A DNA stretch of 64,000 nucleotides from Oscillospiraceae bacterium (lineage in GTDB: Bacteria > Bacillota > Clostridia > Oscillospirales > CAG-272). The notes below the pieces were generated by a model, which was not told where the DNA came from, did not search any database, and worked only from the letters and a program-made list of their open reading frames with translations. The stretch covers positions 6,942-70,941 of the forward strand of contig SVSM01000003.1 in NCBI GenBank assembly GCA_015064295.1. Reading direction: 5' to 3'. Shown here in pieces: positions 17,216 through 43,883 of this stretch; the stretch's first letter is position 1; the number at the start of each line of letters is the position of its first letter. Both the position numbers and the translations under genes were made by a program.

Positions 17216-17312
17216 GCGGGGCTCTGCCCCGCACCCCGCGAGGAGAACTTCTTGAAAGAAGTTCTCCTCGACCTTTCAAGAACGTTTGATGGCCGAAAAC
17301 GGAGTTTTCGGC
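17216..17312 (+). repeat. Three-hairpin intergenic repeat, copy A
   Basis: gcggggc-tct-gccccgc, accccg, cgaggagaacttct-tgaa-agaagttctcctcg, ttcaagaac, gccgaaaac-gga-gttttcggc. Confidence 0.85.
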
Positions 17313-17332
17313 GAGAAGGATGAAGGATCTGC

Positions 17333-17357
17333 CCTCCCCGCAAGGGGAGGTTTTTTT
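17333..17357 (+). terminator. Terminator for ackA
   Basis: cctcccc-gcaa-ggggagg followed by 7 T. Confidence 0.85.
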
Positions 17358-18087
17358 ATATGGATTGCTGCCGGCAGGCAGCGTCCCTGCGGGAATAGGT
17401 GACGGTATAGCGGTTAGGCGTTTGAGGCTCTTGCATACGGATTTGGATGGGATCGGCGGTGCGGAGGTAGGCGGCGAGTGCTTTTCCGTCTCGGATGGTA
17501 TCGGGGATCTCAACGCCGCAGAAGGCACGGTAGCTATCGGCGTGATAGTCGCCGCCGCAGGTGAGGATCAGGCCGTTCTCCACGGCGAAATCCGATACCT
17601 CACGGTAGAAGGAGGCGAGATACCCGGGATGGCAGTTGATCTCCACGCCGTCAAGGACCGAGGGATCCTGCAGACGGTTTCCGCCTCGGAAGGGGTGGGC
17701 CTGGACGACGATGCCGCCCTGCTCGTGAGCCAGGCGGTAAAGCTCCTCCAGCGTCAGATCGTACAGGGTGGGGTGAGCAAGAGTAAAGTCCTCGTCCACA
17801 CCGTAGAGAAGCATATGCAGATTGCCGTGGCGTGCCATGGTGATCTCCATGCCGTAGAGCACGGTACAGCCGATGGCCTCCCCGCACTGCTTGGTGTAGC
17901 GGAACTCCTCGGTGTAGGCACGGGCAAAGGACTCGGCCTCACCGTTTCGAAATAAGGATCGGTCGTAATGATTGGTCAGCACGATGCCGTCAATGCCAAC
18001 CTTCTTGGCGGCGGCAACGATCTCGGGGGCGGGGGCGCGGCAGCAGGTGCTGATTCCCGACGTGTGGGCGTGTAGGTCGATCAACAT
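17356..18087 (-). CDS. PHP-domain phosphoesterase
   Basis: IDLHAHT, LTNHY, GME, HMLLYG, QAHPFR, GGDYH. Confidence 0.9.
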   Translation of the reverse strand: MLIDLHAHTSGISTCCRAPAPEIVAAAKKVGIDGIVLTNHYDRSLFRNGEAESFARAYTEEFRYTKQCGEAIGCTVLYGMEITMARHGNLHMLLYGVDEDFTLAHPTLYDLTLEELYRLAHEQGGIVVQAHPFRGGNRLQDPSVLDGVEINCHPGYLASFYREVSDFAVENGLILTCGGDYHADSYRAFCGVEIPDTIRDGKALAAYLRTADPIQIRMQEPQTPNRYTVTYSRRDAACRQQSI

Positions 18088-18162
18088 GATATCTTCCTCA
18101 TAAAAGCAAGGAGAAACGTCTCAAGATGAAGCTGACGTTCCTCCTTATCCTTCTTATTCTTC

Positions 18163-18894
18163 TTATTCTTCGTTGTTTTCCCAGTTGTGGTAGACGTTCT
18201 GAACGTCGTCGTTTTCATCCAGCTTTTCCAGGAGCAGGTTCATGTTCTTCACGTCGTCCTCATTTTCCAGCGTGATGTAGTTGGAGGGGATCTTGTCCTT
18301 CTCGGCAGAGGCGATCTTATAGCCCTTGCTCTCCAATTCCGCACGGACGGCAGAGAGATCCTCCGGCAGGGTGTAGATCTCGAAGGCCTCTTCCTCGGCC
18401 AGGAAATCCTCGGCGCCCGATTCCAGAGCGTCCTCCATCAGCTTATCCTCGTCCACCGAGCCGTCGTTCTCAATGACGATCACGCCCTTGTCGGTGAACA
18501 GGTAGCCCACGCATCCGCTGGTGCCCATGTTTCCGCCGTACTTATCAAAGAAGTGACGAACCTCGGCGGCGGTGCGGTTGCGGTTGTCGGTGGCGGTCTC
18601 TACGATGACGGCGACACCGGAGGGGCCGTAGCCCTCATAGGTGATCTCCTCGTAGACGGCGGCATCGGCGGCCGAGGCCTTCTTGATGGCGCGGTCAATG
18701 TTATCGTTGGGGACGTTGTTGTCCTTGGCCTTGGCGATCAGGTCGCGGAGGCGGGAGTTAGAGGCGGGATCGGGGCCGCCCTCTTTCACCGCGATGGCGA
18801 TCTCCTTGCCGATCTTGGTGAACACCGAAGCTCTTTGGGCGTCGGTCTTCTCCTTCTTGTGCATAATATTCTTCCATTTGCTATGTCCGGACAT
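18163..18894 (-). CDS. yebC: YebC/PmpR-family protein
   Basis: MSGHSKW start, YEGYGPSG, TDNRNRT, DDVQNVYHN. Confidence 0.96.
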   Translation of the reverse strand: MSGHSKWKNIMHKKEKTDAQRASVFTKIGKEIAIAVKEGGPDPASNSRLRDLIAKAKDNNVPNDNIDRAIKKASAADAAVYEEITYEGYGPSGVAVIVETATDNRNRTAAEVRHFFDKYGGNMGTSGCVGYLFTDKGVIVIENDGSVDEDKLMEDALESGAEDFLAEEEAFEIYTLPEDLSAVRAELESKGYKIASAEKDKIPSNYITLENEDDVKNMNLLLEKLDENDDVQNVYHNWENNEE

Positions 18895-18910
18895 GAGAAC
18901 GAATCCTTTC

Positions 18911-19152
18911 TTGGGGCTCTGCCCCAAACCCCGCTTAAAAACTTCTTGAAAGAAGTTTTTAAGAATTTCAAGAACCTTGAAATGTCGAAAACTTCGTTTT
19001 CGACGGGGTGTCATTGTTAGATTTTCTTGCCGAAAACGCAGTTTTCGGCCATTAAAAGTTTTTGAAGATTCCGCAGATAATTTGCGAAGCAAATTTTCTG
19101 CAGAAACATTTTTTCAAAAAATTTCTTTGGTGGGGTGCGGGGCAAAGCCCCG
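18911..19152. repeat. Inverted pair of three-hairpin repeats, copies B1 (+, 18911-19004) and B2 (-, 19029-19152)
   Basis: Same HP1-linker-HP2-HP3 layout as copy A; B2 carries an extra hairpin (19073-19101) and begins immediately after the argS stop codon. Confidence 0.85.
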
Positions 19153-20898
19153 TTATATTTTAGGCGTCTTCTTCAGACAGATCAGGCCGAAGGCGTTGCC
19201 GAGGACGGTCTTGGTGGCCTCGGTCAGCTCCACACGGAAGGCACGGGCCTCGGGGGATTCGGCGGTCACGATATGGCAATCGTGGTAGAAGCGGTTAAAG
19301 GCACCGCAGACATCGAGAATGAAGCGGGTGATCACCATGGGCTCGCTGTCGCGGATGGCGTCCTTGACCTTTTCTCCAAAGAGGGACAGGATACGGATGA
19401 GGGAGGACTCTGCCTCCACGGGAGCATACCCCTTCGAAGCACCTGCCGGGGGCAGACCGCCTGCCTTTTCGATGATGGAGCAGCAACGGGCATAGGTGTA
19501 CTGGGCGTAGGGGCCGGTATTGCCCTCAAAGGAGAGGGCGTCGTCAAGGGAGAAGTCGTTATCCTTGATACGGCTGTTGGTGAGGTAATAGAAGACGATG
19601 GCACCGACGCCGACGGCCTCGGCCACCTCCTCCTTGTTTTCCAGGTCGGGGTTCTTTTCCTCCATGATGGCCCGCACCTTATCGATGGCCATGGCAAAGA
19701 GGTCCTTCAGCAGGATGACGTTGCCGGTACGGGTGGCCAGCTTGGCGCCGCCGATGCTGACGGTTCCGTAGGGAATATGCACCAGCTCACCGTACCATTC
19801 GTAGCCCATGAGCTCCAGCACCTTGAACCACTGCTGGAAGTGTAGGATCTGCTGGTTGGAGGTGACGTACATACATTTATCGAATTGATAGGTCTCCTTG
19901 CGGTAGACGGCGGCGGCGATGTCACGGGTGGGGTAGAGGGTGGAGCCGTCCCGCTTCAGAATGAGGCAAGGGGGCATTTTATATTCCGACAGGTCTACGA
20001 TGGAGGCGCCGTCGTCGATCTTCAGAAGGTCGCGGTCACGCAGACGCTGTACCTGAGCCGGCATCTTATCGGTGTAGAAGCTCTCGCCGGCGTAGGAATC
20101 GAAGGTAATGCCGAGCTGCTTGTAGGTGCGCTCGTACTCCCGGAGACTGATCTCCACGAACCATTTCCAGAGGGCGATGTTCTCCTCGTCGCCGATCTCC
20201 ATCTTATGGAACTCGTCGCGGGACTGCTGGGCCAGATCGTCACGGGCGGGGATGCCCTTTTCCTCGTCGCCCTTGATTACGTTGTTGATGCGGACGTAAA
20301 GCTCCACCAGCTTATCGATGCCGCCCTCCTCGATCTGGGTCTTGTCCCCCCAGAGCTTGTAGGCCACGATGAGCTTACCGAACTGGGTACCCCAGTCGCC
20401 CAGGTGGTTGATGCCGACGGTCTTCCAACCGGTGTATTCGTGAAGCTTCTTCAAGGAATGGCCGATGACGGTGGTGCCGAGATGGCCGATGTGGAAGGGC
20501 TTGGCCACGTTGGGGGAGCTGTAATCGATGACGAAGGTCTTGCCGTCGCCGTCGTGGCTCTTTCCGTAGTCGTCGCCCTCGGCGAGGACCTGCTTCAGTA
20601 CCTTGTCGGTAAAATAGGTATCGTCGATGACGAAATTGAGATACCCGCCCGCCGTCTTGACCTCTTTAAGGTAAGGCACCTCGCCCAGCGTCTCGGAAAG
20701 AGAGGCGGCGATGGCAGGAGGCGCCTTGCGCAGGGCGCGGCTCAGCTTGAAGCAGGGGAAGGCCAGGTCTCCCATGGTCTTGTCGGGGGGATATTCCAGC
20801 ATCTCCCGCAGCTCGGTTGTATCGGGGGCCGTGCCGGGCGCCGTCTGCTCGATGGCGTCGCGGATGGCGTTTGCTAAGGTTTCTTTGAACTGTAACAC
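19153..20898 (-). CDS. argS: Arginine--tRNA ligase
   Basis: DYSSPNVAKPFHIGH, HLGDWGTQFG, KLATRTG, GNTGPYAQY; GGAGG RBS before GTG 20898. Confidence 0.97.
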   Translation of the reverse strand: MLQFKETLANAIRDAIEQTAPGTAPDTTELREMLEYPPDKTMGDLAFPCFKLSRALRKAPPAIAASLSETLGEVPYLKEVKTAGGYLNFVIDDTYFTDKVLKQVLAEGDDYGKSHDGDGKTFVIDYSSPNVAKPFHIGHLGTTVIGHSLKKLHEYTGWKTVGINHLGDWGTQFGKLIVAYKLWGDKTQIEEGGIDKLVELYVRINNVIKGDEEKGIPARDDLAQQSRDEFHKMEIGDEENIALWKWFVEISLREYERTYKQLGITFDSYAGESFYTDKMPAQVQRLRDRDLLKIDDGASIVDLSEYKMPPCLILKRDGSTLYPTRDIAAAVYRKETYQFDKCMYVTSNQQILHFQQWFKVLELMGYEWYGELVHIPYGTVSIGGAKLATRTGNVILLKDLFAMAIDKVRAIMEEKNPDLENKEEVAEAVGVGAIVFYYLTNSRIKDNDFSLDDALSFEGNTGPYAQYTYARCCSIIEKAGGLPPAGASKGYAPVEAESSLIRILSLFGEKVKDAIRDSEPMVITRFILDVCGAFNRFYHDCHIVTAESPEARAFRVELTEATKTVLGNAFGLICLKKTPKI

Positions 20899-21042
20899 TT
20901 TATACCTCCGTGTATAAGCACACTTATCTTTATTGTACCCCATTTTCTTCCTTTTGTCAAATGGTTTTTCGGGTTTTTCCCGAAGATTTTCCCGGCTTTT
21001 GGGGCATGGCGCGGAGGAGAATAAAATTTTTAAAAAATCCTC

Positions 21043-21094
21043 TTGACAAAGGGGGATGGTTCTGCTATAATGTGTAAGGCGTTTTGCTTTACAC
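21043..21094 (+). promoter_or_regulatory. Sigma-A promoter of ylxM-ffh with downstream palindrome
   Basis: TTGACA-17-TATAAT (21043-21071), then gtgtaaggc-gtttt-gctttacac. Confidence 0.8.
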
Positions 21095-21109
21095 CGTTTT
21101 CGGAGGCGC

Positions 21110-21448
21110 ATGATGGCGAAGGATCTTAGTATGTCGCTCCTTCTCGACTTCTACGGCGAGGTTCTGTCGGAGCCTCAGCGGGAGGCGATGGATCTTTTTT
21201 ACAACGGCGACCTCTCCCTTGCCGAGATCGCCGAGATCACCGGCATCACACGCCAGGGCGTGCGGGACCGCATCGTCAAGGGCGAGCAGATCGTCAGCGA
21301 GCTGGAGGCCAAGCTGGGCCTGGCGGGACGCTTCGGAAACGTGACCAAAACCGTGAACTACGTCGTCGAACGGCTGAACGACATCGAAAAGACCTATCAT
21401 CTGTCGGTGGACGACATCCGTGAGGCCGTCAAGGGTCTCGATACCTGA
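21110..21448 (+). CDS. ylxM: YlxM-family HTH protein
   Basis: LLLDFYGEVLSEPQ, DLSLAEIAE..GITRQGV.D; upstream of ffh. Confidence 0.92.
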   Translation: MMAKDLSMSLLLDFYGEVLSEPQREAMDLFYNGDLSLAEIAEITGITRQGVRDRIVKGEQIVSELEAKLGLAGRFGNVTKTVNYVVERLNDIEKTYHLSVDDIREAVKGLDT

Positions 21449-21476
21449 TACCAAGAAAAAAGGCAGGAGCTATCCC

Positions 21477-22823
21477 ATGCCCATGTTTCAGAACCTGACC
21501 GAAAAGATCAACGCGGCATTCAAAAAGTTTAAGAATAAAGGCAAGCTGACCGAGGAGGACGTCAAGGTCGGTATGCGGGAGATCAAGCTGGCGCTGCTGG
21601 AGGCAGACGTCAACTTCAAGGTCGTCCGCGACTTCATTAAGAAGGTCACCGAGCGCGCCGTCGGCACCGAGGTACTGGAAAGCCTGCTCCCGGCTCAGCA
21701 GATCGTCAAGATCGTAAACGAAGAGCTGACAGCCTTGATGGGCGGCGAGGGCGAGCGCATCCGCCTGGCCTCCCGTCCCCCCACGGTGATTATGATGGTG
21801 GGCCTGCAGGGCGCCGGTAAGACTACCCACTGCGGTAAGCTGGCCGGTATGTTCAAGAAGCAGGGCAGACGCCCGCTGCTCGTGGCCTGTGACGTCTACC
21901 GTCCCGCCGCTGTCAAGCAGCTGGAGGTGGTGGGCGGACAGCTGGAGATCCCGGTGTTCCAGATGGGCACCGAGGTGTCCCCCGTTACCATCGCCAAGGC
22001 GGGTATTGAGCACGCCAAGCAATACGGCCACGACGTGGTCTTTATCGATACCGCCGGTCGTCTCCACATCGATGAGACGATGATGGAGGAGCTGAAGACC
22101 ATCAAGGCCGAGGTAGAGCCCCAGGAGATCCTCCTGGTGGTGGACGCCATGCTGGGTCAGGACGCCGTCAACGTGGCCGAAAGCTTTAACGGCCTTCTTG
22201 ACATCACCGGCGTGGTGCTGACCAAGCTGGACGGCGATACCCGAGGCGGTGCCGCCCTGTCGGTGCGCTACGTCACCGGTAAGCCCATCAAGTACGTGGG
22301 CGTCGGGGAAAAGCTGGACGCCGTCGAGCCCTTCTATCCCGACCGTATGGCCTCCCGTATTCTCGGTATGGGCGATATGCTCTCCCTCATCGAAAAGGCC
22401 GAGGCCGCCTACGATGAAAAGCAGGCCAAGGAGCTGGAGGAAAAGATCCGCCGTTCCCAGTTTGATCTGGAGGATTTCCTCGACCAGTTTCGGCAGATCC
22501 GCAAAATGGGACCGCTGAAGGATATTCTGGCGTCGATCCCCGGCATGGATACCGCCGCCTTGCAGAACGCTCAGTTCGACGAGCACGCCATCGACCGCAT
22601 GGAAGCTATTATCCTCTCCATGACGCCGGAGGAGCGCCGTAAGCCCTCCCTCATCAACGTGCCCCGCAAGAAGCGGATCGCCGCCGGCTCGGGGAACAAG
22701 ATCGAGGACGTCAACCGTCTCCTTAAGCAGTTTGAACAGACCTGCAAGATGATGAAGGAAATGTCAAAGGGCCAGGTCAAGCGGATGATGAAGAACAAGG
22801 GCAAGCGCGGATTCCGCCGCTGA
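21477..22823 (+). CDS. ffh: Signal recognition particle protein
   Basis: ALLEADVN, GLQGAGKTT, DTAGR, TKLDGDTRGGAALS, M domain. Confidence 0.98.
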   Translation: MPMFQNLTEKINAAFKKFKNKGKLTEEDVKVGMREIKLALLEADVNFKVVRDFIKKVTERAVGTEVLESLLPAQQIVKIVNEELTALMGGEGERIRLASRPPTVIMMVGLQGAGKTTHCGKLAGMFKKQGRRPLLVACDVYRPAAVKQLEVVGGQLEIPVFQMGTEVSPVTIAKAGIEHAKQYGHDVVFIDTAGRLHIDETMMEELKTIKAEVEPQEILLVVDAMLGQDAVNVAESFNGLLDITGVVLTKLDGDTRGGAALSVRYVTGKPIKYVGVGEKLDAVEPFYPDRMASRILGMGDMLSLIEKAEAAYDEKQAKELEEKIRRSQFDLEDFLDQFRQIRKMGPLKDILASIPGMDTAALQNAQFDEHAIDRMEAIILSMTPEERRKPSLINVPRKKRIAAGSGNKIEDVNRLLKQFEQTCKMMKEMSKGQVKRMMKNKGKRGFRR

Positions 22824-22910
22824 TGCCGTCAAAAGGAAAACACAAGCGTCAAAACGCTTTTGTCTAAAATACAAAAAATAAACTATTTCAATTTTTGGAG
22901 GAAACAAATC

Positions 22911-23156
22911 ATGGCAGTAAAAATGAGACTCAGAAGAATGGGACAGAAGAAGGCTCCCTTCTACCGCATCGTTGTCGCCGATTCCCGTTCTCCCCGCGAC
23001 GGCCGCTTCATCGAGCAGATCGGACACTACAATCCCATGACCGATCCCGCTGAGGTCGTGATCGACGCCGAAAAGGCCACCAAGTGGATCAAGAACGGCG
23101 CTCAGCCTACCGATACCGTTCGCGCTCTTCTCAAGAAGCAGAACATCATCGGGTGA
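22911..23156 (+). CDS. rpsP: 30S ribosomal protein S16
   Basis: [35 protein letters not shown]. Confidence 0.98.
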
Positions 23157-23161
23157 TAAAA

Positions 23162-23401
23162 ATGCCGGACTTGAAGCAGCTTCTTGCGGATATGTCCCGT
23201 GCGATCGTCGATTATCCCGACAAGATCGCCATCGACGAGCAGGATGAGGGCGATACCGTCGTCTTTACCCTGACGGTGGCCGAATCGGATATGGGAAAGA
23301 TCATCGGCAAGCACGGCAAAAACGCGAGATCGATTCGCACCGTCATGAAGGCCGCCGCCAATACCGTCGGCAAAAAAGTCATCGTCGATATTGCGGAGTA
23401 A
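23162..23401 (+). CDS. khpA: KH-domain RNA-binding protein
   Basis: DMGKIIGKHGKNARSIRT GxxG KH motif; follows rpsP. Confidence 0.93.
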   Translation: MPDLKQLLADMSRAIVDYPDKIAIDEQDEGDTVVFTLTVAESDMGKIIGKHGKNARSIRTVMKAAANTVGKKVIVDIAE

Positions 23402-23418
23402 ATGCCGGTCAAAAAAAA

Positions 23419-23466
23419 CAGAAAACCCTTTCTTTACCGAAGCGTAAGGAAAGGGTTTTTTCTTGT
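23419..23466. terminator. Bidirectional terminator
   Basis: aaaaccctttctttac-cgaagc-gtaaggaaagggtttttt. Confidence 0.85.
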
Positions 23467-23468
23467 CT

Positions 23469-24212: not shown

Positions 24213-24216
24213 GCCA

Positions 24217-24588
24217 TCACTCCTTAAAGAGTTTATTCAGATCCGCCAGCTTCAGCATATTCAGCATCTTGACCAGACTGTCGGCGGTGCGGCGGCGTTC
24301 GGGGGAGAGATAGGGGCGAAGGGCCTTGATGAGAGCGATGCGCTCTCCGTTCCCCGACTGCAGAGAGGAGAGGGGCAGGGGGAAGGCCGATGCCTCCCGA
24401 CCCTCCCCTGCGGGGGCATCGGAGGCTCCGCTTCCCTTGGGGGCGGAAGCGGCCTCCCCGACGGCAGGCGGTACCTGTGGGGTCGGTGCTTGACCTCCCA
24501 TGAGGTTCTGCGCTACCCCCATCAATTTTTCCATGGCAGAGGGATCCGCCAGGACCCCCTGCAGCATTTCCGAAAGATTTCCTTCCAT
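24217..24588 (-). CDS. Hypothetical protein
   Basis: GGAGG RBS; VLADPSAMEKL and RIALIKALRPYLSPERR segments; operonic spacing. Confidence 0.8.
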   Translation of the reverse strand: MEGNLSEMLQGVLADPSAMEKLMGVAQNLMGGQAPTPQVPPAVGEAASAPKGSGASDAPAGEGREASAFPLPLSSLQSGNGERIALIKALRPYLSPERRRTADSLVKMLNMLKLADLNKLFKE

Positions 24589-24597
24589 GATGCCTCC

Positions 24598-24840
24598 TTA
24601 CAGCTTCAGCTTACTTAGCAGTTCTTTTTGCTTTTCGGGCGTGATGCCCTTTAACTGATTTTGCAGCTCGCTCTCCGACATCGCCGCAAATTTGCGGCGA
24701 ATGAGAGCCGCGTGATTCTGCGCCATGCGCTTTTGACTTTGGGAGGCGCCCAGGGCGTCTGCGATCTCCCCGATGGCGTAGCGGAGCTGGTCGGGGCTTA
24801 AGTTCTTTAACTTATCTACGGTTTCCTTATTGATTTCCAT
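24598..24840 (-). CDS. Small helical hypothetical protein
   Basis: GAAAGGA RBS; first of three tightly spaced minus-strand genes. Confidence 0.75.
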   Translation of the reverse strand: MEINKETVDKLKNLSPDQLRYAIGEIADALGASQSQKRMAQNHAALIRRKFAAMSESELQNQLKGITPEKQKELLSKLKL

Positions 24841-27848: not shown

Positions 27849-27893
27849 TCGTTGCTTCGCTACACCAAGGACGATTTCCTTTCGATTCCATCC

Positions 27894-27988
27894 GCAAAAA
27901 ACGCCGTTTTTGCCATCCAAAGTTTTTGAATGATCAAAGAAAACTTTTTTCAAAAAGTTTTCTTTGCGGGTGCAGGGCAGCGCCCTGC
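27894..27988 (-). repeat. Three-hairpin intergenic repeat, copy C
   Basis: Minus strand: gcagggc-gct-gccctgc, acccgc, aaagaaaactttt-tgaa-aaaagttttcttt, ttcaaaaac, gcaaaaac-ggc-gttttttgc. Confidence 0.85.
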
Positions 27989-30352: not shown

Positions 30353-30436
30353 CGTGCGGGGGAAAACTTTCCCCAAAAAGTTTTCCCCCACGCCCCCTTT
30401 CAAAAACTTTGGACGGCCGAAAACTTCGTTTTCGGC
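30353..30436 (+). repeat. Three-hairpin repeat variant, copy D (HP1 missing)
   Basis: gggggaaaacttt-ccccaa-aaagttttccccc, ttcaaaaactttggacg, gccgaaaac-ttc-gttttcggc, then ggggtg as in copy B1. Confidence 0.75.
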
Positions 30437-30441
30437 GGGGT

Positions 30442-30594
30442 GGGCGGACGGAGGCTCATCGGGCGGACGGAGGCTCATCGGGCGGACGGAGGCTCATCGG
30501 GCGGACGAAGGCTCATCGGGCGGACAGAGCGCTCGCCATGCGGATGGAGGTTCGTCAGGCAGACGAAGGTTTGCCATGCGGACGGAGGTTCGCG
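30442..30594 (+). repeat. 19-bp tandem repeat, about 8 units, degenerating toward the 3' end
   Basis: gggcggacggaggctcatc exact at 30442, 30461, 30480; one mismatch at 30499; degenerate units at 30518, 30538, 30557, 30576. Confidence 0.9.
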
Positions 30595-30618
30595 GATATT
30601 TTGGAATCGGAGATTCTC

Positions 30619-34663: not shown

Positions 34664-34715
34664 GGAGGAGGCCGTGTCAAGGGACTTGACACGGCCTCCT
34701 CCTTTGGTATATAAT
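34664..34715 (+). promoter_or_regulatory. Sigma-A promoter whose -35 lies in a perfect 18-bp inverted repeat
   Basis: ggaggaggccgtgtcaag-gga-cTTGACAcggcctcctcc; TATAAT at 34710-34715. Confidence 0.75.
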
Positions 34716-34724
34716 ATGTCTGTC

Positions 34725-34940
34725 TTACCGAGGGGCAACGCCGAAAGCGTTTCAATAAGGAATCCCGGTGAAAATCCGGAGCGAGCCCGTCGCCGTGAGC
34801 AGGGAACAAGGAAGACTGCCGTCCTCCTCCGCAGGGAGGGCGGGACAAGCCATTGCGTCTGCCCGTTTTAAGGCAAGCGTGAGAAGGTGTCTTTCTCCGC
34901 GTAAGCGTCACCTGCGCAGTCGGAAGACTTACCCCGAAGA
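34725..34940 (+). ncRNA. Cobalamin riboswitch
   Basis: aaggaatcccggtgaaaatccggagcgagcccgtcgccgtga, gccattg, gagaagg, B12-box-like agtcggaagactta; upstream of B12-uptake-type genes. Confidence 0.88.
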
Positions 34941-35035
34941 CCGCAGAAGCCGCGATGTCCGGCGCCGAAGGGATGCGGAAACGGCAGGACAAATGAAAAA
35001 ATGGGGATTTCCCCAACATGAAAGGAACATATGAC

Positions 35036-37122: not shown

Positions 37123-37137
37123 GAAAGGACTGTCACC

Positions 37138-37776
37138 ATGACCGACCCATACAAGATCCTGGGCGTCTCCCGCGACGCCTCGGACGACGAGATCAAAAAG
37201 GCCTACCGCGAGCTGGCAAGAAAGTATCATCCCGACAACTACGCGGGAAGCCCTCTTGCCGATCTGGCGGGGGAAAAGATGAAGGAGATCAATACCGCTT
37301 ACGCCGATATTCAGAAGGCCCGCGCCGAGGCCCAGAGCGGAGAGCAGACGGGTGAGGACGGCTATACCGAGTACACCTACGGCGGCAGTACCTATACGGG
37401 GGAAAACGCCGAGAGCTTCAAGACCATTCGGGAGTATATCAACGCCGGACGGTTTTCGGATGCCGATCTTTTGCTGAACTCGCTGTCCGCCTCGGCCCGT
37501 AACGCCGAGTGGAATTTCTTAAAGGGCTGCGTGCTGGCCCAGAAGGGCTGGTTTTACGACGCCCAGCGGTATTTTGAAACGGCCTGCTATATGGCGCCCG
37601 ACAATCAGGAATACCGTGGGGCTCTTAATAACATCCGTATGCGCGCCAACGCCTACGGCAGGGGCTACCGCACCGCCGAAAACGGCGGATCCGGCGCCTG
37701 CGATCTCTGCACGGGACTCATGTGCGCCGATTGCTGCTGCGAGTGCTGCGGCGGCGACCTGATCCGGTGCTGCTGA
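37138..37776 (+). CDS. J-domain protein with TPR-like helices and C-terminal cysteine string
   Basis: [24 protein letters not shown]; C-terminus [25 protein letters not shown]. Confidence 0.9.
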
Positions 37777-38324
37777 TGGCGGCCAAACGAGGGGGCGCCA
37801 AGCTCGGTACCCGAAAGCTGGCGGTGGCCGCCATGCTTTGTGCTCTCGGCGTAGTATTCCTCTACGTCGGCGCAGTGATCGAGGTCCTGGACCTGACGAT
37901 GGTGGCGGTGGCATCTCTTTTCATTTTCTTTGCGGTGATGGAGATGGGAGGGGCCTATCCCTATCTCATTTATCTCGTCACGGCGGTGCTGTCCCTGCTT
38001 CTTCTGCCGTCGAAATTCGCGGCGGGAGCCTATCTGCTGTTCGGCGGGATCTATCCGGTGCTGAAGCTTTTCTTTGAAAAGCTTCCTACCGTCCTGGGAT
38101 GGGCCATGAAGCTGCTCTACTGCAACGCCATCGTGTCACTTCTTCTGTGGGTGTCCCTTTTTCTCCTTCACATTGAGGATCCCGATCTGGGCTTCAACCT
38201 CTTGACCTACGGTCTTTTCAACGTGACCTTCGTTCTTTACGACGTGGCGGCCACGCAGCTGGTGACGCTGTACCTTGTGCGGCTGCGTAAGCGTCTCCGG
38301 ATCGAAAGGTTTTTCGAGAAATAA
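37776..38324 (+). CDS. Hypothetical multi-pass membrane protein
   Basis: TGATG overlap with the J-domain gene; about six hydrophobic segments. Confidence 0.82.
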   Translation: MAAKRGGAKLGTRKLAVAAMLCALGVVFLYVGAVIEVLDLTMVAVASLFIFFAVMEMGGAYPYLIYLVTAVLSLLLLPSKFAAGAYLLFGGIYPVLKLFFEKLPTVLGWAMKLLYCNAIVSLLLWVSLFLLHIEDPDLGFNLLTYGLFNVTFVLYDVAATQLVTLYLVRLRKRLRIERFFEK

Positions 38325-38423
38325 CGCCTTAAATCTTGACAAATCCTGCCAAAAAGTGTACAATAGACTATATATTTCCGAGCATCCGCAGAGCGCGGAG
38401 CTTGGTGTTTTGAAGAGAGTATC

Positions 38424-39311
38424 ATGATCAAAAGTATGACTGCCTTCGGGCGTGCCGTCGGTTCGGGCAGCGGAAAGAATTTCGTCTGCGAGATCCGTTC
38501 GGTCAACAATCGTTATTTGGATTGCTCGGTCAAGCTTCCCCGTTCCTACGGCTTTCTTGAGGAAAAGGTGATCGCCTTTATCCGCGGAAGCGGGATCACA
38601 CGGGGTAAGGTCGAGGTGTATATCGGCATTGAGGTCACCGAAACGGTGGGGGCCGACGTGGAGCTGGACCGCGGTTACGCGGCGGGCTATCTTGCCGCCC
38701 TCAAGTCCCTGCGGGACGAGTTCGGTCTGGTGGACGACATCAGTACCATGTCGGTAGCGGCCAACCGGGACCTGTTCCTGGTGAAAAAGCCTACCGAGGA
38801 TGCCGACCGCGACTGGGCGGAGCTTCTCCCGGTCCTCGGCGAGGCCCTGGCGGTCTACAATCGGGCAAGAGAGGCCGAGGGTGCTAACCTGCGCCGCGAT
38901 CTTCTGGCTAAGCGTCACCATCTTGAGGAGCTGGCCGACCGCATCGGCGTCCTTTCCGCCGAGAATACCGTTGGCTATCGGGCGCGACTGGAGGCCCGTC
39001 TCCGTCAGACGCTGGAGACTCTCAACATGGAGTTCGATTCCCAAAGAATCCTCACCGAGTGTGCCATTTTTGCCGACAAGATCGCCGTGGACGAGGAGCT
39101 GGTCCGCCTGAAGAGCCATTTTGTTGCCTTTGACGAGGCTATGGACTCCGATCAGCCGGTGGGACGCCGCCTGGATTTCCTTCTTCAGGAAATGAACCGC
39201 GAGGTCAATACCACGGGCTCTAAGTCCAACGACAGCACCATCGCTGCTCTGGTGGTGGACGCCAAGTGCGAGCTGGAAAAGATCCGCGAGCAGATTCAGA
39301 ACCTGGAATAA
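38424..39311 (+). CDS. yloC: YicC/YloC endoribonuclease
   Basis: [60 protein letters not shown]; promoter TTGACA-17-TACAAT at 38336-38364. Confidence 0.95.
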
Positions 39312-39333
39312 GCAGACAGAAAAGGATGTTACT

Positions 39334-39603
39334 ATGAAATTTATCAGCATCGGGTTCGGGAATATGGTCTCCTCGGGCCGCGTGGTTACCCTGGTCAGCC
39401 CCGATTCGGCGCCTATGAAGCGTCTGATCCAGGATGCCAGAGAGGCGGGGCGCGTCATCGACGTGACCTGCGGCCGTCGTACCCGCTCGGTGATTATTAC
39501 CGACAGCGACCACGTGATCCTCTCGGCCATCCAGACCGAGACCATCTGCAACCGACTGAACGGTGAGGGAGCCGACGCTTCCGACGAGAACGACGAGGTG
39601 TAA
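39334..39603 (+). CDS. remA: RemA/DUF370-family protein
   Basis: [41 protein letters not shown]. Confidence 0.93.
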
Positions 39604-39609
39604 GGCGCT

Positions 39610-40239
39610 ATGACCACCTTAGAATCTCCCAAGGGCATTCTTCTCGTGGTTTCGGGAGCCGCCGGTACCGGAAAGGGTACCGTCAATGCCATCCTGATGA
39701 AGGAGCACGACGATTTCGTTTTCTCGGTGTCCGCCACTACCCGTGCCCCACGTCCTGGTGAGGTGGACGGCAGAGAATACCATTTTATGACCAAGGAGCA
39801 GTTTGAGGAGCAGATCCGCCTGGGCGGTGTGATCGAGTATACGCAGTACTGCGGGAACTACTACGGCACCTTAAAGAGCGAGCTTCGCAAGCTGGACGAG
39901 GGGAAAAACCTGATCCTGGAGATCGAGGTGGAGGGTGCCATGAATATCAAGCGCCTCTTTCCCGACAGCGTGGCCGTCTTCATTCTTCCTCCCGATGCCG
40001 TTACCCTGCGGAACCGTCTCGTCAACCGCGGCACCAACACCGCCGACGATATCGAAAACCGTATGAAACGAGCGCTGGATGAGTTTTCCCTGGTAGAGCA
40101 TTACGACTACGCAGTGGTCAATCACGACGGAAGAGCCAAGGAAGCCGCCGACGCGATCTACGCCATCGTGAAAAGCGAGCAACACAAAGCAAGCCGCGCC
40201 GAAGGCGCCATGAACCGCTTGTTTTTCAATCAAGAATAA
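39610..40239 (+). CDS. gmk: Guanylate kinase
   Basis: SGAAGTGKGT, SATTRAPRPGEVDGREYHF, YYGT. Confidence 0.96.
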   Translation: MTTLESPKGILLVVSGAAGTGKGTVNAILMKEHDDFVFSVSATTRAPRPGEVDGREYHFMTKEQFEEQIRLGGVIEYTQYCGNYYGTLKSELRKLDEGKNLILEIEVEGAMNIKRLFPDSVAVFILPPDAVTLRNRLVNRGTNTADDIENRMKRALDEFSLVEHYDYAVVNHDGRAKEAADAIYAIVKSEQHKASRAEGAMNRLFFNQE

Positions 40240-40277
40240 CGCCAATCGATACCCATCAAAAGGAAGGACAGAATATT

Positions 40278-40568
40278 ATGAAGATGATCGCCCCCTCTGT
40301 GGATGAACTGACCCACCAGAATCAATACAACCGTTATACCCTGGTCATTGCCGTGGCCAAGTGCGCCAGAATGGTGACCGACGAGTACGTCAGCCAGCGT
40401 GAGACGGCAGAACGGATGCTGGCCAACAAGGAGACCGACAAGAGTCTGGCTGCTCTGATCAAGAAGGACTTCCGCGACGAAAAGGCCGTCCGGATCGGTA
40501 TCAACCGTCTGCACAGCGGTGAGTACCGCATTGACGATAACTCCATCGATACCACCATCAGTTATTGA
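40278..40568 (+). CDS. rpoZ: RNA polymerase omega subunit
   Basis: PSVDEL..NRYTLVIAVAKCAR; position after gmk. Confidence 0.85.
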   Translation: MKMIAPSVDELTHQNQYNRYTLVIAVAKCARMVTDEYVSQRETAERMLANKETDKSLAALIKKDFRDEKAVRIGINRLHSGEYRIDDNSIDTTISY

Positions 40569-40581
40569 CGGGAGAAGGACA

Positions 40582-43044
40582 ATGGAAGCTTCGGTAGCGC
40601 GGGTCTATCTGCTTGACGCACCGTACCACATTGACAAACTGTACGATTATTATATCCCCGAGGAGCTGAGAGGCACCTTGACCGTCGGCGGCTTCGCCGC
40701 GGTGCCTTTCGGCGGGGGGAATCGCAAGCAGCTCGCTCTCGTTGGCGGGCTTGCTTCTGCTTCTGAGTATACGGCTCTCAAGCCGATCTTGGCTCCCGCC
40801 TGCGGCAGCTTGACGCTGAGCGAGGAGATGATTGGGCTTTGTCTGTATATGAAGGAGCATTTTTTGTGCACCGTGGGAGCCGCCGTCAAGGCCATCCTGC
40901 CTGCGGCGGCGCTGACCAAGGTCAAGGACTGCTATACGGTAAAAGAGGAGGTTTCGGATTTTTCCTCTCTCTCCCCTAAGCAGGAGGCCCTTTGCCGTTA
41001 TATCCGGGCAAAGGGCAGGGTACAGGAGGCGGCCGCCGTCAAGGAGTACGGCCCCTCGGTCACCGCCATGCTGGCCAAGCTGACGGCCATGGGGATCCTG
41101 AACCGGGAGGCGGAATTTGCCGAAAGCCGCTCGGTGGTGGTCGAAACGGCCTACCTGAGCAAGGAATACGAGGAGATGGAGCCCGAGGCCTTACTCAAAA
41201 CCGTGCGGGGAGACAAGCAGAAGGCTGCTCTCCGCGCGCTGGCGCTTTGCGGTTCTCTGTCTCTTAACGAGCTGCGAGACCGGTACGACGTGGAGCGTCC
41301 CATCGTCAAATCTCTTGTCAGCAAGGGCCTGGTGACGATGGAGAGCGAGGACGTTTTCCGCGATCCCTACAAGGGACGTCACCTTCCTGCCGATTCGGAG
41401 CTGATCCTTTCGGAGGAGCAGGAGGCGGCAAGAAGGACGCTGTCAGATCTTGCCGACAGCGGCGAGCCCAAGGCGGCGCTGCTCTACGGTGTGACGGGAA
41501 GCGGGAAAACGGGGGTGATCCGCGCCGTCATGGATGACGTGATCGCCAAGGGGCGCTCGGTGATCCTACTGGTACCTGAAATCGCCTTAACGCCCCAAAC
41601 CGTTGCTATTTTCCGCGCCCATTACGGCGACCGCACGGCGGTGATCCACTCGGGTCTCTCACGAGGAGAGCGCTGGGATGCCTGGCGGAAGATCGCAAAC
41701 GGTGAGGCCGACGTCTGCATCGGTACCCGTTCGGCTATTTTTGCCCCCTTCTCCAACCTGGGCCTCATCGTCATGGACGAGGAGCAGGAGCATACCTACA
41801 AGTCGGATATGGATCCCAAATACCATGCCCGCGATATTGCCCGTTACCGCTGCGCCAAGCAAAACGCCATGATGCTGTTGGCTTCGGCAACGCCGTCGGT
41901 GGAGAGCTTTCACAAGGCGGAGGAAGGGAAGTACACCCTGGTGCGTCTGCCTCACCGCTACGGAGGCGCCGTCCTCCCCGATACCGTCATCACCGACCGC
42001 CGCCCCGACAGTAAGGCAGGCAATACCTCCCCCATCGGTGCTGAGCTGGCCGCCCGCTTGCAGGAGACGCTTGACAAAAAGGAGCAGGCCATTCTCTTCA
42101 TCAATCAGCGGGGCTATCATCGGTTCCTCACCTGTCCCCTCTGCGGTCAGGTGCTGATGTGTCCCCATTGCAGCGTGTCCTATACCTATCATACCCGTCC
42201 GGGAGGAGGCGGCTATCTGTTCTGCCATTACTGCGGAAGCAAGGAGGCCGTCCCCCACAAGTGTCCCCAGTGCGGAAACGAGACCATGAAGCACGTTGGC
42301 TTCGGTACCCAGATGGTGGAGGAGGAGCTGGCAAGACGCTTCCCGACCGCCTGCGTCATGCGGATGGACGCCGATACCACATCCACCAAGTTTTCTTACG
42401 ATAAGCTCCTCGGCAGCTTCCGCGAGGGAGAGGCCGATATTCTCATCGGCACCCAAATGGTGACCAAGGGCCACGATTTTCCCAACGTTACCCTGGTAGG
42501 TGTCATCAACGCCGATTCCTCCCTCTACTTAAGCGATTTTAAGGCCAACGAGCGTACCTTCGGGCTTCTCACCCAGGTCATCGGCCGCGCGGGGAGAGGG
42601 GAGAAGAAGGGCTGTGCTCTGATCCAGACCTACAATCCCGGGCATCCCGTGCTGGCGCTTTCCTCGGCCCAGGACTACGAGCGGATGTATCGGGAGGAGA
42701 TTGCCCTCAGGCGGTCTCTCGTTTTCCCGCCCTTCTGCGATATGGTGCTCTTTACCCTGTCCTCCGAATCGGAGACTGAGCTTGTGGCGGCCGCAAGCGG
42801 TTTTGCTGCCCTTTTCCGTCAGCTGAATCAAGACAAGCATCCTACCGTGCAAACGGTGATCTTTGGCCCCATGGAGGCCCCCATCTATAAGCTGAACGGC
42901 ATCTATCGGATGCGGCTGGTCATCAAGTGCCGCTTCAACGCCGCGACACGGAGGCTGATCGCCGAGGCCTACGCCGAGATCGGCCGCAAGGTCGGGCGGA
43001 AGATCGGCATTTCCGCCGACGTCAATCCCACGAATTTGTCATAA
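40582..43044 (+). CDS. priA: Primosomal protein N'
   Basis: GVTGSGKT, VPEIALTPQ, DEEQE, four CxxC, GTQMVTKGHDFPNV, QVIGRAGR. Confidence 0.97.
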   Translation: MEASVARVYLLDAPYHIDKLYDYYIPEELRGTLTVGGFAAVPFGGGNRKQLALVGGLASASEYTALKPILAPACGSLTLSEEMIGLCLYMKEHFLCTVGAAVKAILPAAALTKVKDCYTVKEEVSDFSSLSPKQEALCRYIRAKGRVQEAAAVKEYGPSVTAMLAKLTAMGILNREAEFAESRSVVVETAYLSKEYEEMEPEALLKTVRGDKQKAALRALALCGSLSLNELRDRYDVERPIVKSLVSKGLVTMESEDVFRDPYKGRHLPADSELILSEEQEAARRTLSDLADSGEPKAALLYGVTGSGKTGVIRAVMDDVIAKGRSVILLVPEIALTPQTVAIFRAHYGDRTAVIHSGLSRGERWDAWRKIANGEADVCIGTRSAIFAPFSNLGLIVMDEEQEHTYKSDMDPKYHARDIARYRCAKQNAMMLLASATPSVESFHKAEEGKYTLVRLPHRYGGAVLPDTVITDRRPDSKAGNTSPIGAELAARLQETLDKKEQAILFINQRGYHRFLTCPLCGQVLMCPHCSVSYTYHTRPGGGGYLFCHYCGSKEAVPHKCPQCGNETMKHVGFGTQMVEEELARRFPTACVMRMDADTTSTKFSYDKLLGSFREGEADILIGTQMVTKGHDFPNVTLVGVINADSSLYLSDFKANERTFGLLTQVIGRAGRGEKKGCALIQTYNPGHPVLALSSAQDYERMYREEIALRRSLVFPPFCDMVLFTLSSESETELVAAASGFAALFRQLNQDKHPTVQTVIFGPMEAPIYKLNGIYRMRLVIKCRFNAATRRLIAEAYAEIGRKVGRKIGISADVNPTNLS

Positions 43045-43073
43045 TACGTTCCCAATCTGGAAAGGATAACAAC

Positions 43074-43547
43074 ATGGCTATCTTAAAGATCATTACCAAG
43101 GAGGATCCGATCCTTCGAAAGACCAGCCGTCCCGTGGAGGAGATCACCCCTCGCATCCTTCGTCTTCTCGACGATATGAGGGATACCCTCCATAAGGCCG
43201 AGGGTGCCGGCCTTGCCGCACCGCAGGTGGGGGTTCTCCGCCGCGTAGTGCTGGTGGAGACCGAGCCCGGCGAGCTTCTTGAGCTGATCAATCCCGAGAT
43301 CGTGTCGGTGTCGGAGGAGCGTCAGGAGGATATTGAGGGCTGTCTCTCGGTGCCCGGTGAATGGGGGATTACCGACCGTCCCATGACGGTGACCGTCCGT
43401 GCCCAGGATCGTAACGGCGCTTGGTTTGAGGCCACTGGCAGCGGTCTGAAGGCCCGTTGCTTCTGCCATGAGCTTGACCACCTGGACGGCGTCCTCTATA
43501 CCGATAAGGTCATCCGTATGCTGACCGACGAGGATTTTGAGGATTAA
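43074..43547 (+). CDS. def: Peptide deformylase
   Basis: GAGLAAPQVG, EGCLSVP, HELDHLDG. Confidence 0.98.
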   Translation: MAILKIITKEDPILRKTSRPVEEITPRILRLLDDMRDTLHKAEGAGLAAPQVGVLRRVVLVETEPGELLELINPEIVSVSEERQEDIEGCLSVPGEWGITDRPMTVTVRAQDRNGAWFEATGSGLKARCFCHELDHLDGVLYTDKVIRMLTDEDFED

Positions 43548-43561
43548 ATCGGGGAGAACGC

Positions 43562-43883
43562 CAAAGGGCTCTGCCCTTTGAGAACCCGCTTCTTTCTAAG
43601 TTAGAAAGAAGCAAAGACCGCTGTTGCGAAAAACGCCGTTTTTCGCGATGAATCGATAACGAAAGCGGTAATGCGATCGATTGGCGAAGTCGTAAGATTC
43701 TTCCCATTTGCCCAAAACGGAGTTTTGGGCCGATCAAGGTTTTTGAGGTCAAGGAACTTTTTTCAAAAAGTTCCTTGCGGGTGCAGGGCAGAGCCCTGCG
43801 CGCCTTCCCGCTTTTTCCGATGCAGGGCAGAGCCCTGCTCACCATCTTATAAAAAGGGGTTTGGGGAAAACCGGTTTCCCCAA
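43562..43883. repeat. Inverted pair of three-hairpin repeats, copies E1 (+, 43562-43646) and E2 (-, 43710-43799), plus extra HP1-like hairpins
   Basis: Same layout as copies A-C; duplicated gcagggc-aga-gccctgc at 43783 and 43822; ttggggaaaaccggtttccccaa at about 43861-43883. Confidence 0.85.

Follow-up and report, generated by a model that had tools for sequence, protein, structure and literature searches.

Within a 64,000-nt stretch of DNA from an Oscillospiraceae bacterium (GenBank assembly GCA_015064295.1, contig SVSM01000003.1, positions 6,942 to 70,941; here called the window), seven copies of an intergenic element made of three consecutive hairpins (HP1, HP2 and HP3) had been noticed, the outer stems of which differ between copies and still pair. 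What is this element, and which strand, in which molecule, has to fold for its stems to be kept? We found that the element belongs to a family with about one hundred copies in the source genome, and that the stretches behind HP1 and HP2, which the original prediction had treated as linkers, are third tracts that mirror the stems and covary with them in parallel register. This is the register of intrastrand triplexes, and the pattern of mismatches and loops points to the complement of the strand on which the element was first written. Throughout, the written strand is the orientation used in the original prediction and the complement is the strand opposite to it.

Seven copies and a large repeat family

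The element is a non-coding repeat of approximately 97 nt that is composed of HP1 and its tract, HP2 and its tract, and HP3. HP1 is a G-run/C-run hairpin followed by a C-run, formerly read as a linker. In HP2, a variable purine-rich outer 5' arm surrounds a nearly invariant inner core, and the tract behind it is of the ..TCAARAAC type. The core of HP3 is of the A4-5/T4-5 type. In the window sequence, all seven copies were recovered at the places first reported, and a covariance model built from 60 genomic copies of the source assembly (G000; 1,355,953 bp in 46 contigs, 78.5% complete, G+C 56%) returned exactly seven matches, each with E <= 6.6e-07, at 17216-17315 (+), 18911-19007 (+), 19026-19153 (-), 27891-27988 (-), 30357-30439 (+), 43563-43649 (+) and 43707-43799 (-). 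These are numbered copies 1 to 7 here. When the window copies were folded on both strands with DNA parameters, all seven adopted the three-hairpin fold on either strand (z -3.75 to -9.63), and none of the 200 shuffles run for each of the 14 folds folded as well.

Covariation was counted in a 111-copy alignment with 500 shuffles as the null. Standard pairs occupy 97.9% of 2574 cells, compared with 79.6 +/- 0.4% in the shuffles, in an alignment that was fitted to the covariance model and so leans towards structure. Changes on both sides were found at 24 of 24 pairs, among them all 11 pairs of HP2, and the 493 cells changed on both sides (124 +/- 17.5 expected) were not equalled in any of the 500 shuffles. 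The variable outer stems stay paired in 97.3% of cells, and shifting the partner by a single column lowers pairing to 67-70%. An independent MAFFT alignment of 60 copies shows compensatory changes at 14 of the 24 pairs. The covariation of the outer stems is thereby confirmed, and the view that structure maintains the family is supported.

A strict pattern for the HP2 core has 36 matches in the source assembly, and its reversed control has none. With an nhmmer profile (cut-off E<1e-5), 107 copies were found in the source contigs, of which 81 are full, 15 lack HP1 and 11 are partial; the covariance model finds 111 copies in the loci that hold elements. It also matches 23 of 40 relatives, hence 24 of 41 genomes with the source assembly. 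Among the congeners, which carry labels of the type G001 to G016, 16 of 18 were matched, with at least 95 copies in G005 (82% complete), at least 99 in G012 (98% complete), at least 68 in G013 (99% complete), 23 in G016 (89% complete) and 1-11 in the other 12, the highest of these values being lower bounds. Weaker matches were returned from five other families of the same order. A scan for the exact HP2 core plus linker, with one genome per species, gave at least 124 loci, and among the matches listed nearly all are metagenome-assembled genomes (MAGs) of Clostridia, Oscillospiraceae or Eubacteriales from animal guts; only the HP2 module is recognisable in many of these loci. Phage and plasmid collections returned no match to the element, and 2.9 million viral contigs contained three loci. 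Contigs of public sequencing runs break at elements; in practice, assemblies of MAGs from such gut bacteria are fragmented by the repeats.

A few records labelled as other than Clostridia also hold exact matches to the HP2 core plus linker with consistent mirror tracts. They are a Desulfovibrionaceae MAG (loci L149, L154 and L203), Verrucomicrobia bacterium UBA1183 (L141 and L186) and Acidocella facilis ATCC 35904 (L163), and could reflect transfer, mislabelling or contamination. The congeners G005 and G012 have tandem arrays of larger composite units, in which the element is accompanied by extra hairpins; the period is 230 in G005 (3.7 copies at one locus) and about 265-305 in G012 (loci L076, at G005:C97:1-850, L077-L095, and L086-L091 of G012). 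Neighbouring tandem units there carry different yet internally consistent variants of HP2 and its third tract.

Third tracts mirror the stems

The stretches behind HP1 and HP2 are not spacers. Both mirror the 3' arm of the hairpin that precedes them, and are thus the parallel complement of its 5' arm, as in the 5' arm/3' arm/tract sets GGAAAA/TTTTCC/CCTTT, GGAG/CTCC/CCTC and GGGGG/CCCCC/CCCCC. The tract behind HP2 is no Watson-Crick partner of anything in the element. For 60 unique (arm, tract) haplotypes of the source assembly, the parallel-complement score was 1.72, compared with -0.56 +/- 0.23 when haplotypes were permuted (z 9.8; not reached in any of 1000 permutations). The reverse complement, which represents the antiparallel register, reached z 5.0 with the same haplotypes, and direct or reversed copies of the arm gave no signal in their tracts. 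The mutual-information matrix of 5' arm against tract is diagonal, and the register is therefore parallel. At the four crossing column pairs of 5' arm and tract, 91.2% of 411 cells are complementary, compared with 73.5 +/- 1.2% after shuffling, and 125 cells are changed on both sides where 44 +/- 12 are expected (0 of 500 shuffles as high). Read in antiparallel register, 79.1% are complementary and the shuffles give 72.0%.

The triads formed by the two arms and the tract are largely of a few kinds. At the best column set they are G-C-C in 63, A-T-T in 33 and other in 9 (n=105), and canonical triads make up 75-80% at three other column sets. The inner triad of HP2 is T-A-A in 67, C-G-G in 31 and other in 13 (5 with gaps; n=111). 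Run lengths follow the same rule. Of 94 unique elements, 87 have an arm T-run and a tract A-run of the same length, five of them at 6/6, and five 4/4 cases were found in congeners. Similarly, the G-run, C-run and downstream C-run of HP1 are equal in 66 of 85 parsed copies (4/4/4 in 46, 5/5/5 in 10 and 3/3/3 in 10). In such homopolymer parts, namely HP1 and the T and A runs, parallel and antiparallel readings are indistinguishable. HP3 has no third tract; judged by eye, the T-run before it does not follow its A-run in length. The folds also contain a small hairpin in the linker (TCAAA-AAC-TTTGA), for which no consistent compensatory change was seen by eye in the alignment.

The rule was recovered in two further data sets, 49 haplotypes from congeners (z 9.4) and 54 haplotypes from diverse MAG records (z 10.8). 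In the latter, the parallel complement contains the tract 4-mer without mismatch in 23 of 54 cases, where 3.2 are expected, and the reverse complement contains it in 12. A single orthologous locus tells the same story: an HP1-less copy behind argG is kept in at least 10 species (G000, G001, G002, G003, G005, G007, G009, G010, G014 and G015), and arms and tract change together in its four states, namely G4A4/T4C4/C4T3, G5A2/T2C5/C5T1 with T4 and A4 runs, G3A3/T3C3/C3T2 and G5/C5/C5. We conclude that both third tracts covary with the stems in parallel register. Watson-Crick pairing of the linker with the 5' arm of HP2 was rejected as an explanation, since it accounts for nothing beyond the invariant inner part and is disrupted in variants.

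A minimal version is found in G005 (C99:1960-2180; locus L127) behind the dehydrogenase gene that precedes copy 5 in the window. In place of copy 5, there is a minimal hairpin (GGGGAAAGC / GCTTTCCCC) that is followed 6 nt later by CCCCTTTTT, a hairpin and mirror tract that merge into a T-run.

Strand and molecule

Unique mismatches in the outer stem of HP2 are strongly skewed. Across the three data sets, 28 of 40 are A(5')-C(3'), 3 are G-T, 1 is T-G and 8 are other. Neutral transitions would give A-C and G-T equally. Seen from the complement, an A-C mismatch of the written strand becomes a G-T wobble. Stop-adjacent copies (66, with 5 mismatches) and start-adjacent copies (26, with 4 mismatches) alike show the excess of A-C, and the asymmetry therefore follows the element and not the direction of transcription. 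Where A-C occurs, the third tract sides with the 3' arm in 13 cases and with the 5' arm in 2, with 6 ties. Hence, a triplex of the written strand would have as its central strand the purine arm, which is the one free to drift, while on the complement the match between central purine strand and third tract is kept and wobbling is confined to the Watson-Crick partner. G-T or G-U pairs are no more common than other mismatches (11 of 60 mismatches; approximately 1.4% of cells in the 111-copy alignment), and in this scarcity the stems are unlike those of typical structured RNAs.

The HP3 loops favour the same strand. The original prediction had reported C-GNA-G loops in five of the seven window copies, and these are on the written strand in one and on the complement in four, with the remaining two copies having it on neither. 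C(GNA)G triloops are on the complement in 60 of 89 HP3 hairpins of the source assembly and in 57 of 76 in congeners, and on the written strand in 7 and 4, respectively, or 117 against 11 of 165 hairpins in all. Loops of the d(GNA) type closed by C-G make extraordinarily stable DNA mini-hairpins, the RNA versions of which are considerably less stable (PMC13037366; PMC3201870), and natural C(GNA)G mini-hairpins sit at priming sites on single-stranded DNA (PMC13037366). The pointer to single-stranded DNA that had been drawn from these loops is thus borne out family-wide, with the folded strand turned round: the loops lie on the complement of the strand that was first written. Together, the mismatch and triloop asymmetries and the scarcity of G-T or G-U pairs favour the complement, and DNA rather than RNA, as the folding strand, with triads of the purine motif.

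Folded DNA as the candidate selected state

An intrastrand triplex motif consists of a purine arm, a pyrimidine arm and a third tract that follows after a loop of approximately 3 nt, the third tract being parallel to the purine tract in the Y motif and antiparallel to it in the R motif (PMC4666352). Holder et al. 2015 distinguished four classes, such that class I or II on one strand implies class III or IV on the other, and RNA forms pyrimidine-motif but not purine-motif intrastrand triplexes (PMC4666352). By their sequence, HP1 and outer HP2 would be class III and inner HP2 class II on the written strand, and the corresponding classes on the complement would be I and IV. The tract behind HP2 is continuous and switches motif where the purine tract switches strand, a design that goes by the name of alternate-strand triplex.

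The state under selection may well be a folded DNA triplex of the complementary strand, a reading that we hold to be about evenly poised between right and wrong. On the complement, the purine tracts (the G-run and those of GGAAA type) would be Watson-Crick paired to the pyrimidine arm and also bound by the purine third tract, in a class I purine-motif triplex of G.G-C and A.A-T triads with a pyrimidine-motif continuation at the inner T-run/A-run of HP2. Single-stranded DNA could adopt such a structure as an intrastrand triplex and supercoiled duplex could adopt it as H-DNA; its compact, SSB-resistant fold would be recognised by copying enzymes or by DNA enzymes of the host. The element would then spread without a gene of its own, as REP and BoxC/PIT repeats do, into sites that tolerate about 100 nt between a stop codon and its terminator or between cistrons. 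While the mirror rule is a property of the sequences, we infer the formation of the triple helix, its location in DNA of the complement and its function.

Several points weigh against a DNA triplex of the complement. Non-canonical triads make up 9-25% per column and the tract is usually 1 nt shorter than the arm. The HP1 tract is explained equally well as an alternative Watson-Crick partner because it is a homopolymer, and the covariation of the inner T-run and A-run would also be compatible with an alternative Watson-Crick helix of 8-10 bp. The copies are related by descent, so that the permutation z-scores overstate their independence. The HP1 and HP3 stems have no mismatch asymmetry. Most copies lie in transcribed 3' untranslated regions (UTRs) in the sense orientation, which suits an RNA role. 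No mobiliser was found, in MAGs that are incomplete. The replication strand of single copies was the leading template in 9 and the lagging in 5, with 23 undetermined, in an assembly where GC skew and gene-strand bias agree poorly (r 0.23), and we know of no process that specifically exposes the complementary strand. Finally, the best-studied BoxC/PIT case folds in vitro and gave a negative BoxC/TMECO footprint in vivo (PMC4666352).

A broader proposal is that selection keeps a purine-motif DNA triplex, intrastrand or H-DNA, at about a hundred loci per genome through independent three-way compensatory changes, as punctuation of gene ends. We regard this as possible but clearly the more doubtful of the two. 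If correct, it would be the first comparative-genomic proof of such triplexes as a functional DNA structure in living bacteria, and they would be gene-end punctuation read by an enzyme of replication, repair or recombination. Whether intrastrand triplexes or H-DNA form and play a part in bacterial cells has been a question since BoxC/PIT was described, and dozens of natural variants in which purine arm, pyrimidine arm and tract change jointly are evolutionary evidence for a three-stranded register. They also make the family a ready-made set of natural compensatory mutants for biophysics, something that the conserved BoxC sequence cannot offer. The clean habit of the element (behind stop codons, upstream of terminators and inside the otherwise overlapping def-fmt and rimI-tsaD) makes its effects on transcription, replication and operon expression directly testable.

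Position at gene ends and a possible RNA role

With gene calls from our own, crude caller, the HP1 end faces a gene in all 106 copies of the source assembly that have a neighbour. In 75 of the 106 it points towards the stop codon of a gene on the same strand, at a median distance of approximately 12 nt, and in 31 it points towards the start codon of a divergently oriented gene. At their HP3 end, 70 of 107 copies are turned towards an inverted partner and make up 35 tail-to-tail pairs; no head-to-head or tandem arrangement was found among the 107. The spacers of these pairs are unrelated in sequence and often contain terminators. One pair lies between the gyrB stop and the gyrA start, and its 311-nt spacer (G000 C41:7020-7330; L043:496-800) contains approximately six TTTTCCACA-type DnaA-box-like 9-mers. 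By spacer type, elements were found in 25 of the 165 that are convergent, in 42 of the 759 that are co-directional and in 2 of the 161 that are divergent.

These positions suit an RNA element of 3' UTRs and intercistronic spacers, the hairpins of which, perhaps locked by an RNA triple helix, shield the upstream message from 3' exonucleases, with inverted pairs also shielding the downstream cistron from 5' decay. ENE/MALAT1-type elements contain a pyrimidine-motif RNA triple helix of U.A-U and C+.G-C triads. The sense position of the 75 copies behind a stop codon, the enrichment that follows gene 3' ends and the ackA copy (copy 1), which is transcribed as it lies between the ackA stop and its terminator, all agree with such a role, and pyrimidine-motif intrastrand triplexes are possible in RNA (PMC4666352). 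However, the mismatches are of the wrong kind for a sense RNA, with 28 A-C and 3 of the G-U type, whatever the orientation of the copy to its gene, and G-U is not favoured over other mismatches. The stable GNA triloop is antisense in 117 of 165 HP3 hairpins, 31 of 106 copies and one half of every within-operon pair are themselves antisense, and the purine-motif segments cannot form in RNA (PMC4666352). In a public RNA run (word share 0.05; contigs only), neither the ends nor the strand of the element were readable. We consider an RNA role unlikely.

Two other functions at gene ends were rejected. The element is not an intrinsic terminator, in which a T-run comes immediately after a G+C-rich hairpin, since HP3 is followed by purines and the real terminators are downstream of the element. 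The TTGAAA core was considered as a promoter, and a single promoter-like site was found in 2.2 kb, which is the shuffle mean.

Insertion and the search for a mobiliser

The neighbours of the window copies are housekeeping genes (ackA, yebC, argS, rimI, tsaD, a gene of the isocitrate/isopropylmalate dehydrogenase family, def and fmt), and comparison revealed empty counterparts of their sites in congeners, at def-fmt in most of them and at yebC-argS, rimI-tsaD and ackA in G001 and/or G016. The def-fmt spacer is 346 nt in the source assembly, while in 16 of 17 congeners with both genes it is at most 33 nt or the genes overlap; in G005, which holds an orthologous pair of elements, it is 253 nt. 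The yebC-argS spacer is 18 nt in G001, and G016 retains one full and one truncated element. In both G001 and G016, rimI and tsaD overlap (ATGA), and the terminator is directly behind the ackA stop, where the source assembly has the element between stop and terminator. The elements are thus insertions relative to congeners, and the REP/MITE-like habit that had been proposed (MITE, miniature inverted-repeat transposable element), intergenic, inserted and often in inverted pairs, is upheld. No target-site duplication is discernible at these four filled/empty comparisons, in which divergence is limiting. The pairs are unlikely to be a single transposing unit, as their spacers are unrelated and often hold terminators, and G016 has one full and one truncated half.

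The original prediction expected a mobiliser of the HUH (TnpA/RAYT) type elsewhere in the genome, and this part of it found no support. The mobile-gene surveys covered 19 genomes. The corresponding domain, PF01797, has no match in the source assembly, G012, G013 or G016, and in G005, the remaining high-copy genome, there is a single weak, partial match (E 4e-6). Strong matches (E <= 3e-22) are in six low-copy congeners, and 8 of 19 genomes have a match at E<=0.001. When six Y1 loci were examined with the covariance model for flanking copies of the same hairpins, none contained an element. Neither TnpB (PF07282; 3 of 19 genomes), IS110 (PF01548; 4 of 19), reverse transcriptase (PF00078; 5 of 19) nor DUF559 (PF04480; 11 of 19, all low-copy except for G016 with 23 copies) tracks copy number. 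Across 19 loci around candidate mobile genes, the covariance model gave one weak match (E 0.0019). As MAGs often miss insertion sequences, this does not prove that a mobiliser is absent.

A reverse transcriptase domain (PF00078, E 7.6e-21) is present in a 308-aa frame of the source assembly (C39:15627-16181; L263), with no element in the locus. The DUF559 genes of low-copy congeners (L264-L275, 11 congeners) are flanked by a different, BoxC-like module that comprises a CCTCCC-type tract, a GGGAGG-type tract, a small GAA-looped hairpin and a mirror GGAGGG-type tract.

The insertion data bear on a second alternative, a REP/MITE-like mobile repeat that consists of hairpins only and serves a transposase as single-stranded DNA substrate, its mirror tracts being alternative partners or the result of subfamily hitch-hiking. 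Under this explanation, either C-run is a possible partner of the HP1 G-run, as TTCAARAA is of TTYTTGAA, and the range of copy number among congeners (1 to about 100), the empty sites, the common inverted pairs and the tandem arrays in G005 and G012 are all expected. However, the outer HP2 tract follows the stem in parallel and not in antiparallel register, and non-monotonic sets such as GGAG/CTCC/CCTC and GAGA/TCTC/CTCT, in which the alternative helix is broken, are beyond any Watson-Crick pairing. The mirror rule was recovered from three data sets and from one orthologous locus, no Y1, TnpB, IS110, reverse transcriptase or DUF559 gene tracks copy number or adjoins the element, and no target duplication was seen. 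A repeat of hairpins alone is, in our view, as improbable as an RNA role. The weakest alternative, and a very improbable one, is a duplex-DNA binding array in which the HP2 core would provide two inverted half-sites and the linker a near-direct third for a nucleoid-, topoisomerase- or recombinase-type protein: gyrase and IHF bind REP/BIME, the inner core and linker motif are nearly invariant across distant MAG records in variable surroundings, and one pair flanks the DnaA-box-like cluster between gyrB and gyrA, but an array of this kind needs neither paired outer stems nor a mirror of 3' arm and linker, and neither strand-specific mismatch tolerance nor GNA loops.

Relation to known repeats and novelty

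The folded DNA triplex that we favour has its closest counterpart in the BoxC/PIT (potential intrastrand triplex) repeats of Escherichia coli, other Proteobacteria and Cyanobacteria (PMC4666352; Hoyne et al. 2000 as cited there). Since the linkers are third tracts, the element resembles BoxC/PIT/TMECO more than REP. Like these, it is a dispersed intergenic repeat with three consecutive tracts in triplex register, which was found in all three data sets. It also shares the second loop of approximately 3 nt, the purine motif on one strand with the pyrimidine motif on the other, a copy number that is drastically uneven between close relatives, the inverted pairs, and the lack of a known associated gene or function. 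It differs in its unrelated sequence and its clostridial host, in having two triplex-type modules and a third hairpin, in the conserved inner hairpin that bridges the HP2 arms, in the switch of motif at the purine/pyrimidine junction of the tract, and in the shortness of its tracts (4-7 nt outer plus 5-6 nt inner). The TMECO consensus of a 9-nt C-rich stem, a 3-6-nt loop and two 9-nt G-rich stems (PMC4666352) does not describe the element, which has G/C runs of 3-5 nt in HP1 and mixed A/G in HP2, with no 9-nt tract. Whereas BoxC has a conserved sequence, the tracts of the element vary between copies and covary three ways.

REP and REPIN repeats are short palindromes that are paired with RAYT (Y1 HUH) transposases. 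The likeness to REP/BIME/REPIN is in the intergenic palindromic repeats at gene 3' ends and in operons, in single copies as well as inverted pairs, approximately 100 copies per genome, and mosaic tandem clusters in G005 and G012 (REP/BIME as defined in the Introduction of PMC4666352). Unlike a REP palindrome of 20-40 bp, the element is approximately 97 nt long, with three hairpins, mirror third tracts and unrelated pair spacers that often hold terminators, and no RAYT is present in the high-copy genomes G000, G012, G013 and G016 (G005 having only the weak partial match), nor any element in the six Y1 loci. A MITE, which would have terminal inverted repeats, a target-site duplication and a related autonomous element, was rejected on the lack of target duplication at the four divergence-limited comparisons, the lack of a linked Y1, TnpB, IS110, reverse transcriptase or DUF559 gene and the lack of a phage or plasmid match.

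Three further systems share single features with the element. The first comprises initiation signals on single-stranded DNA, namely the complementary-strand origins of phages G4, St-1 and alpha3, ssiA of RSF1010 and the early promoters of N4, in which strand-specifically folded DNA has d(C-GNA-G)-type mini-hairpins that exclude SSB and are read by primases or polymerases (PMC13037366). HP3 and a nested 31-nt module (described below) carry loops of this type; the element is chromosomal, has about a hundred copies and contains triplex-type modules. The second is the H-DNA motif, a homopurine/homopyrimidine mirror repeat (PMC4666352; PMC11667243). The 3' arm, a spacer of approximately 3-4 nt and the tract form a pyrimidine mirror repeat, with a purine mirror on the other strand, but its halves are short, the mirror extends across a purine/pyrimidine switch and the 5' arm is conserved as an inverted repeat. 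The third is the integron attC site. These sites are sequence-variable, structure-conserved imperfect palindromes directly behind open reading frames and act as one folded DNA strand, and the element is likewise variable in sequence, conserved in structure and found directly behind open reading frames. An attC site belongs to mobile cassettes that lack promoters and lie in a single orientation beside an integron integrase. The element was rejected as attC, with no search aimed at an integrase, because its neighbours are core housekeeping genes (ackA, argS, yebC, rimI, tsaD, def, fmt, argG, gyrA and gyrB) in conserved synteny, its empty sites involve no gene gain, and it occurs in both orientations and in inverted pairs.

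Rfam searches of the window at gathering scores returned only a tRNA and a cobalamin riboswitch and no match to the element. At E<=1, the best match overlapping an element in ten loci with copies scored 32.7 bits, compared with a gathering score of 46. In the published literature, no description of the repeat and no occurrence of its core strings was found; the supplement of PMC4666352 or the ITxF database might list motifs from cultured Clostridia, and the main text of that article makes no mention of Clostridia, Firmicutes, covariation or compensatory changes. As far as these literature and Rfam searches reached, this is a previously undescribed repeat family of gut Clostridia that extends the BoxC/PIT-type class. 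The original prediction was therefore right on novelty, structural maintenance, habit and the hint of single-stranded DNA, and has to be revised on the mobiliser, the linkers and the strand.

Copies and neighbours in the window

Copy 1 is a full element on the plus strand (17216-17315; 91.7 bits) that begins 15 nt behind the ackA stop (17201). By fold and pair counts, the G-run arm of its HP1 (17216-17232) is joined through a loop of 3 nt to a C-run arm that carries an outer extension of 2 bp. The third tract of HP1 (17234-17237) is a C-run equal in length to the G-run and C-run of the stem. HP2 (17239-17270), as folded, is composed of a purine-rich 5' arm, the conserved inner core and a pyrimidine-rich 3' arm. 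The third tract of HP2 (17272-17283) was identified from the parallel-register covariation and mirrors the 3' arm as a pyrimidine part followed by a junction C, an A-run and a further C. HP3 (17292-17312) is a 9-bp hairpin with a 3-nt loop, supported by the fold and the loop statistics. The intrinsic terminator of ackA (17333-17357, plus strand), made up of 17333-17350 and a T-run, is outside the repeat and downstream of it, as established from a terminator scan and the empty sites.

The full copies 2 (18911-19007, plus) and 3 (19026-19153, minus) are the left and right halves of a tail-to-tail pair, in which HP1 of copy 2 points towards the yebC start and HP1 of copy 3 abuts the argS stop. 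Copy 4 (27891-27988, minus), also full, lies between rimI and tsaD with its HP1 12 nt from the tsaD start (28001). Copy 5 (30353-30439, plus), which has no HP1 and a long HP2, follows the gene of the isocitrate/isopropylmalate dehydrogenase family at 10 nt from its stop. In the def-fmt pair, copy 6 (43562-43649, plus), behind the def stop, is the left half and has a divergent HP2 with a pyrimidine 5' arm; the right half is copy 7 (43707-43799, minus), which is full. A solo HP1-like hairpin was read from the sequence between copy 7 and fmt (43822-43838), and a further hairpin, GGGGAAAAC / GTTTCCCC, is at 43862-43880 between copy 7 and the fmt start.

An extra GCGAAGC hairpin had been reported in copy 3. 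It is real, and is the centre of a palindromic module of approximately 31 nt (19071-19103) that sits in HP2 of this copy and is one of seven copies of a separate repeat. The others in the source assembly are at C17:~1697, C46:~2820, C18:~25665, C5:~31575, C5:~56519 and C10:~44904. The module always has a GNA-type mini-hairpin at its centre and is always inside or abutting a main element, at sites that differ (HP2 itself, the loop of HP3, the stretch from HP1 to HP2 or the one behind HP2). It looks like a smaller, nested repeat.

Directly 3' of copy 5, at 30437-30600, there are head-to-tail units of approximately 19 nt (GGCGGACGGAGGCTCATCG-like) that decay towards the 3' side. The window also carries a tRNA at 5284-5369 (55 bits) and a cobalamin riboswitch at 34714-34950 (48.7 bits).

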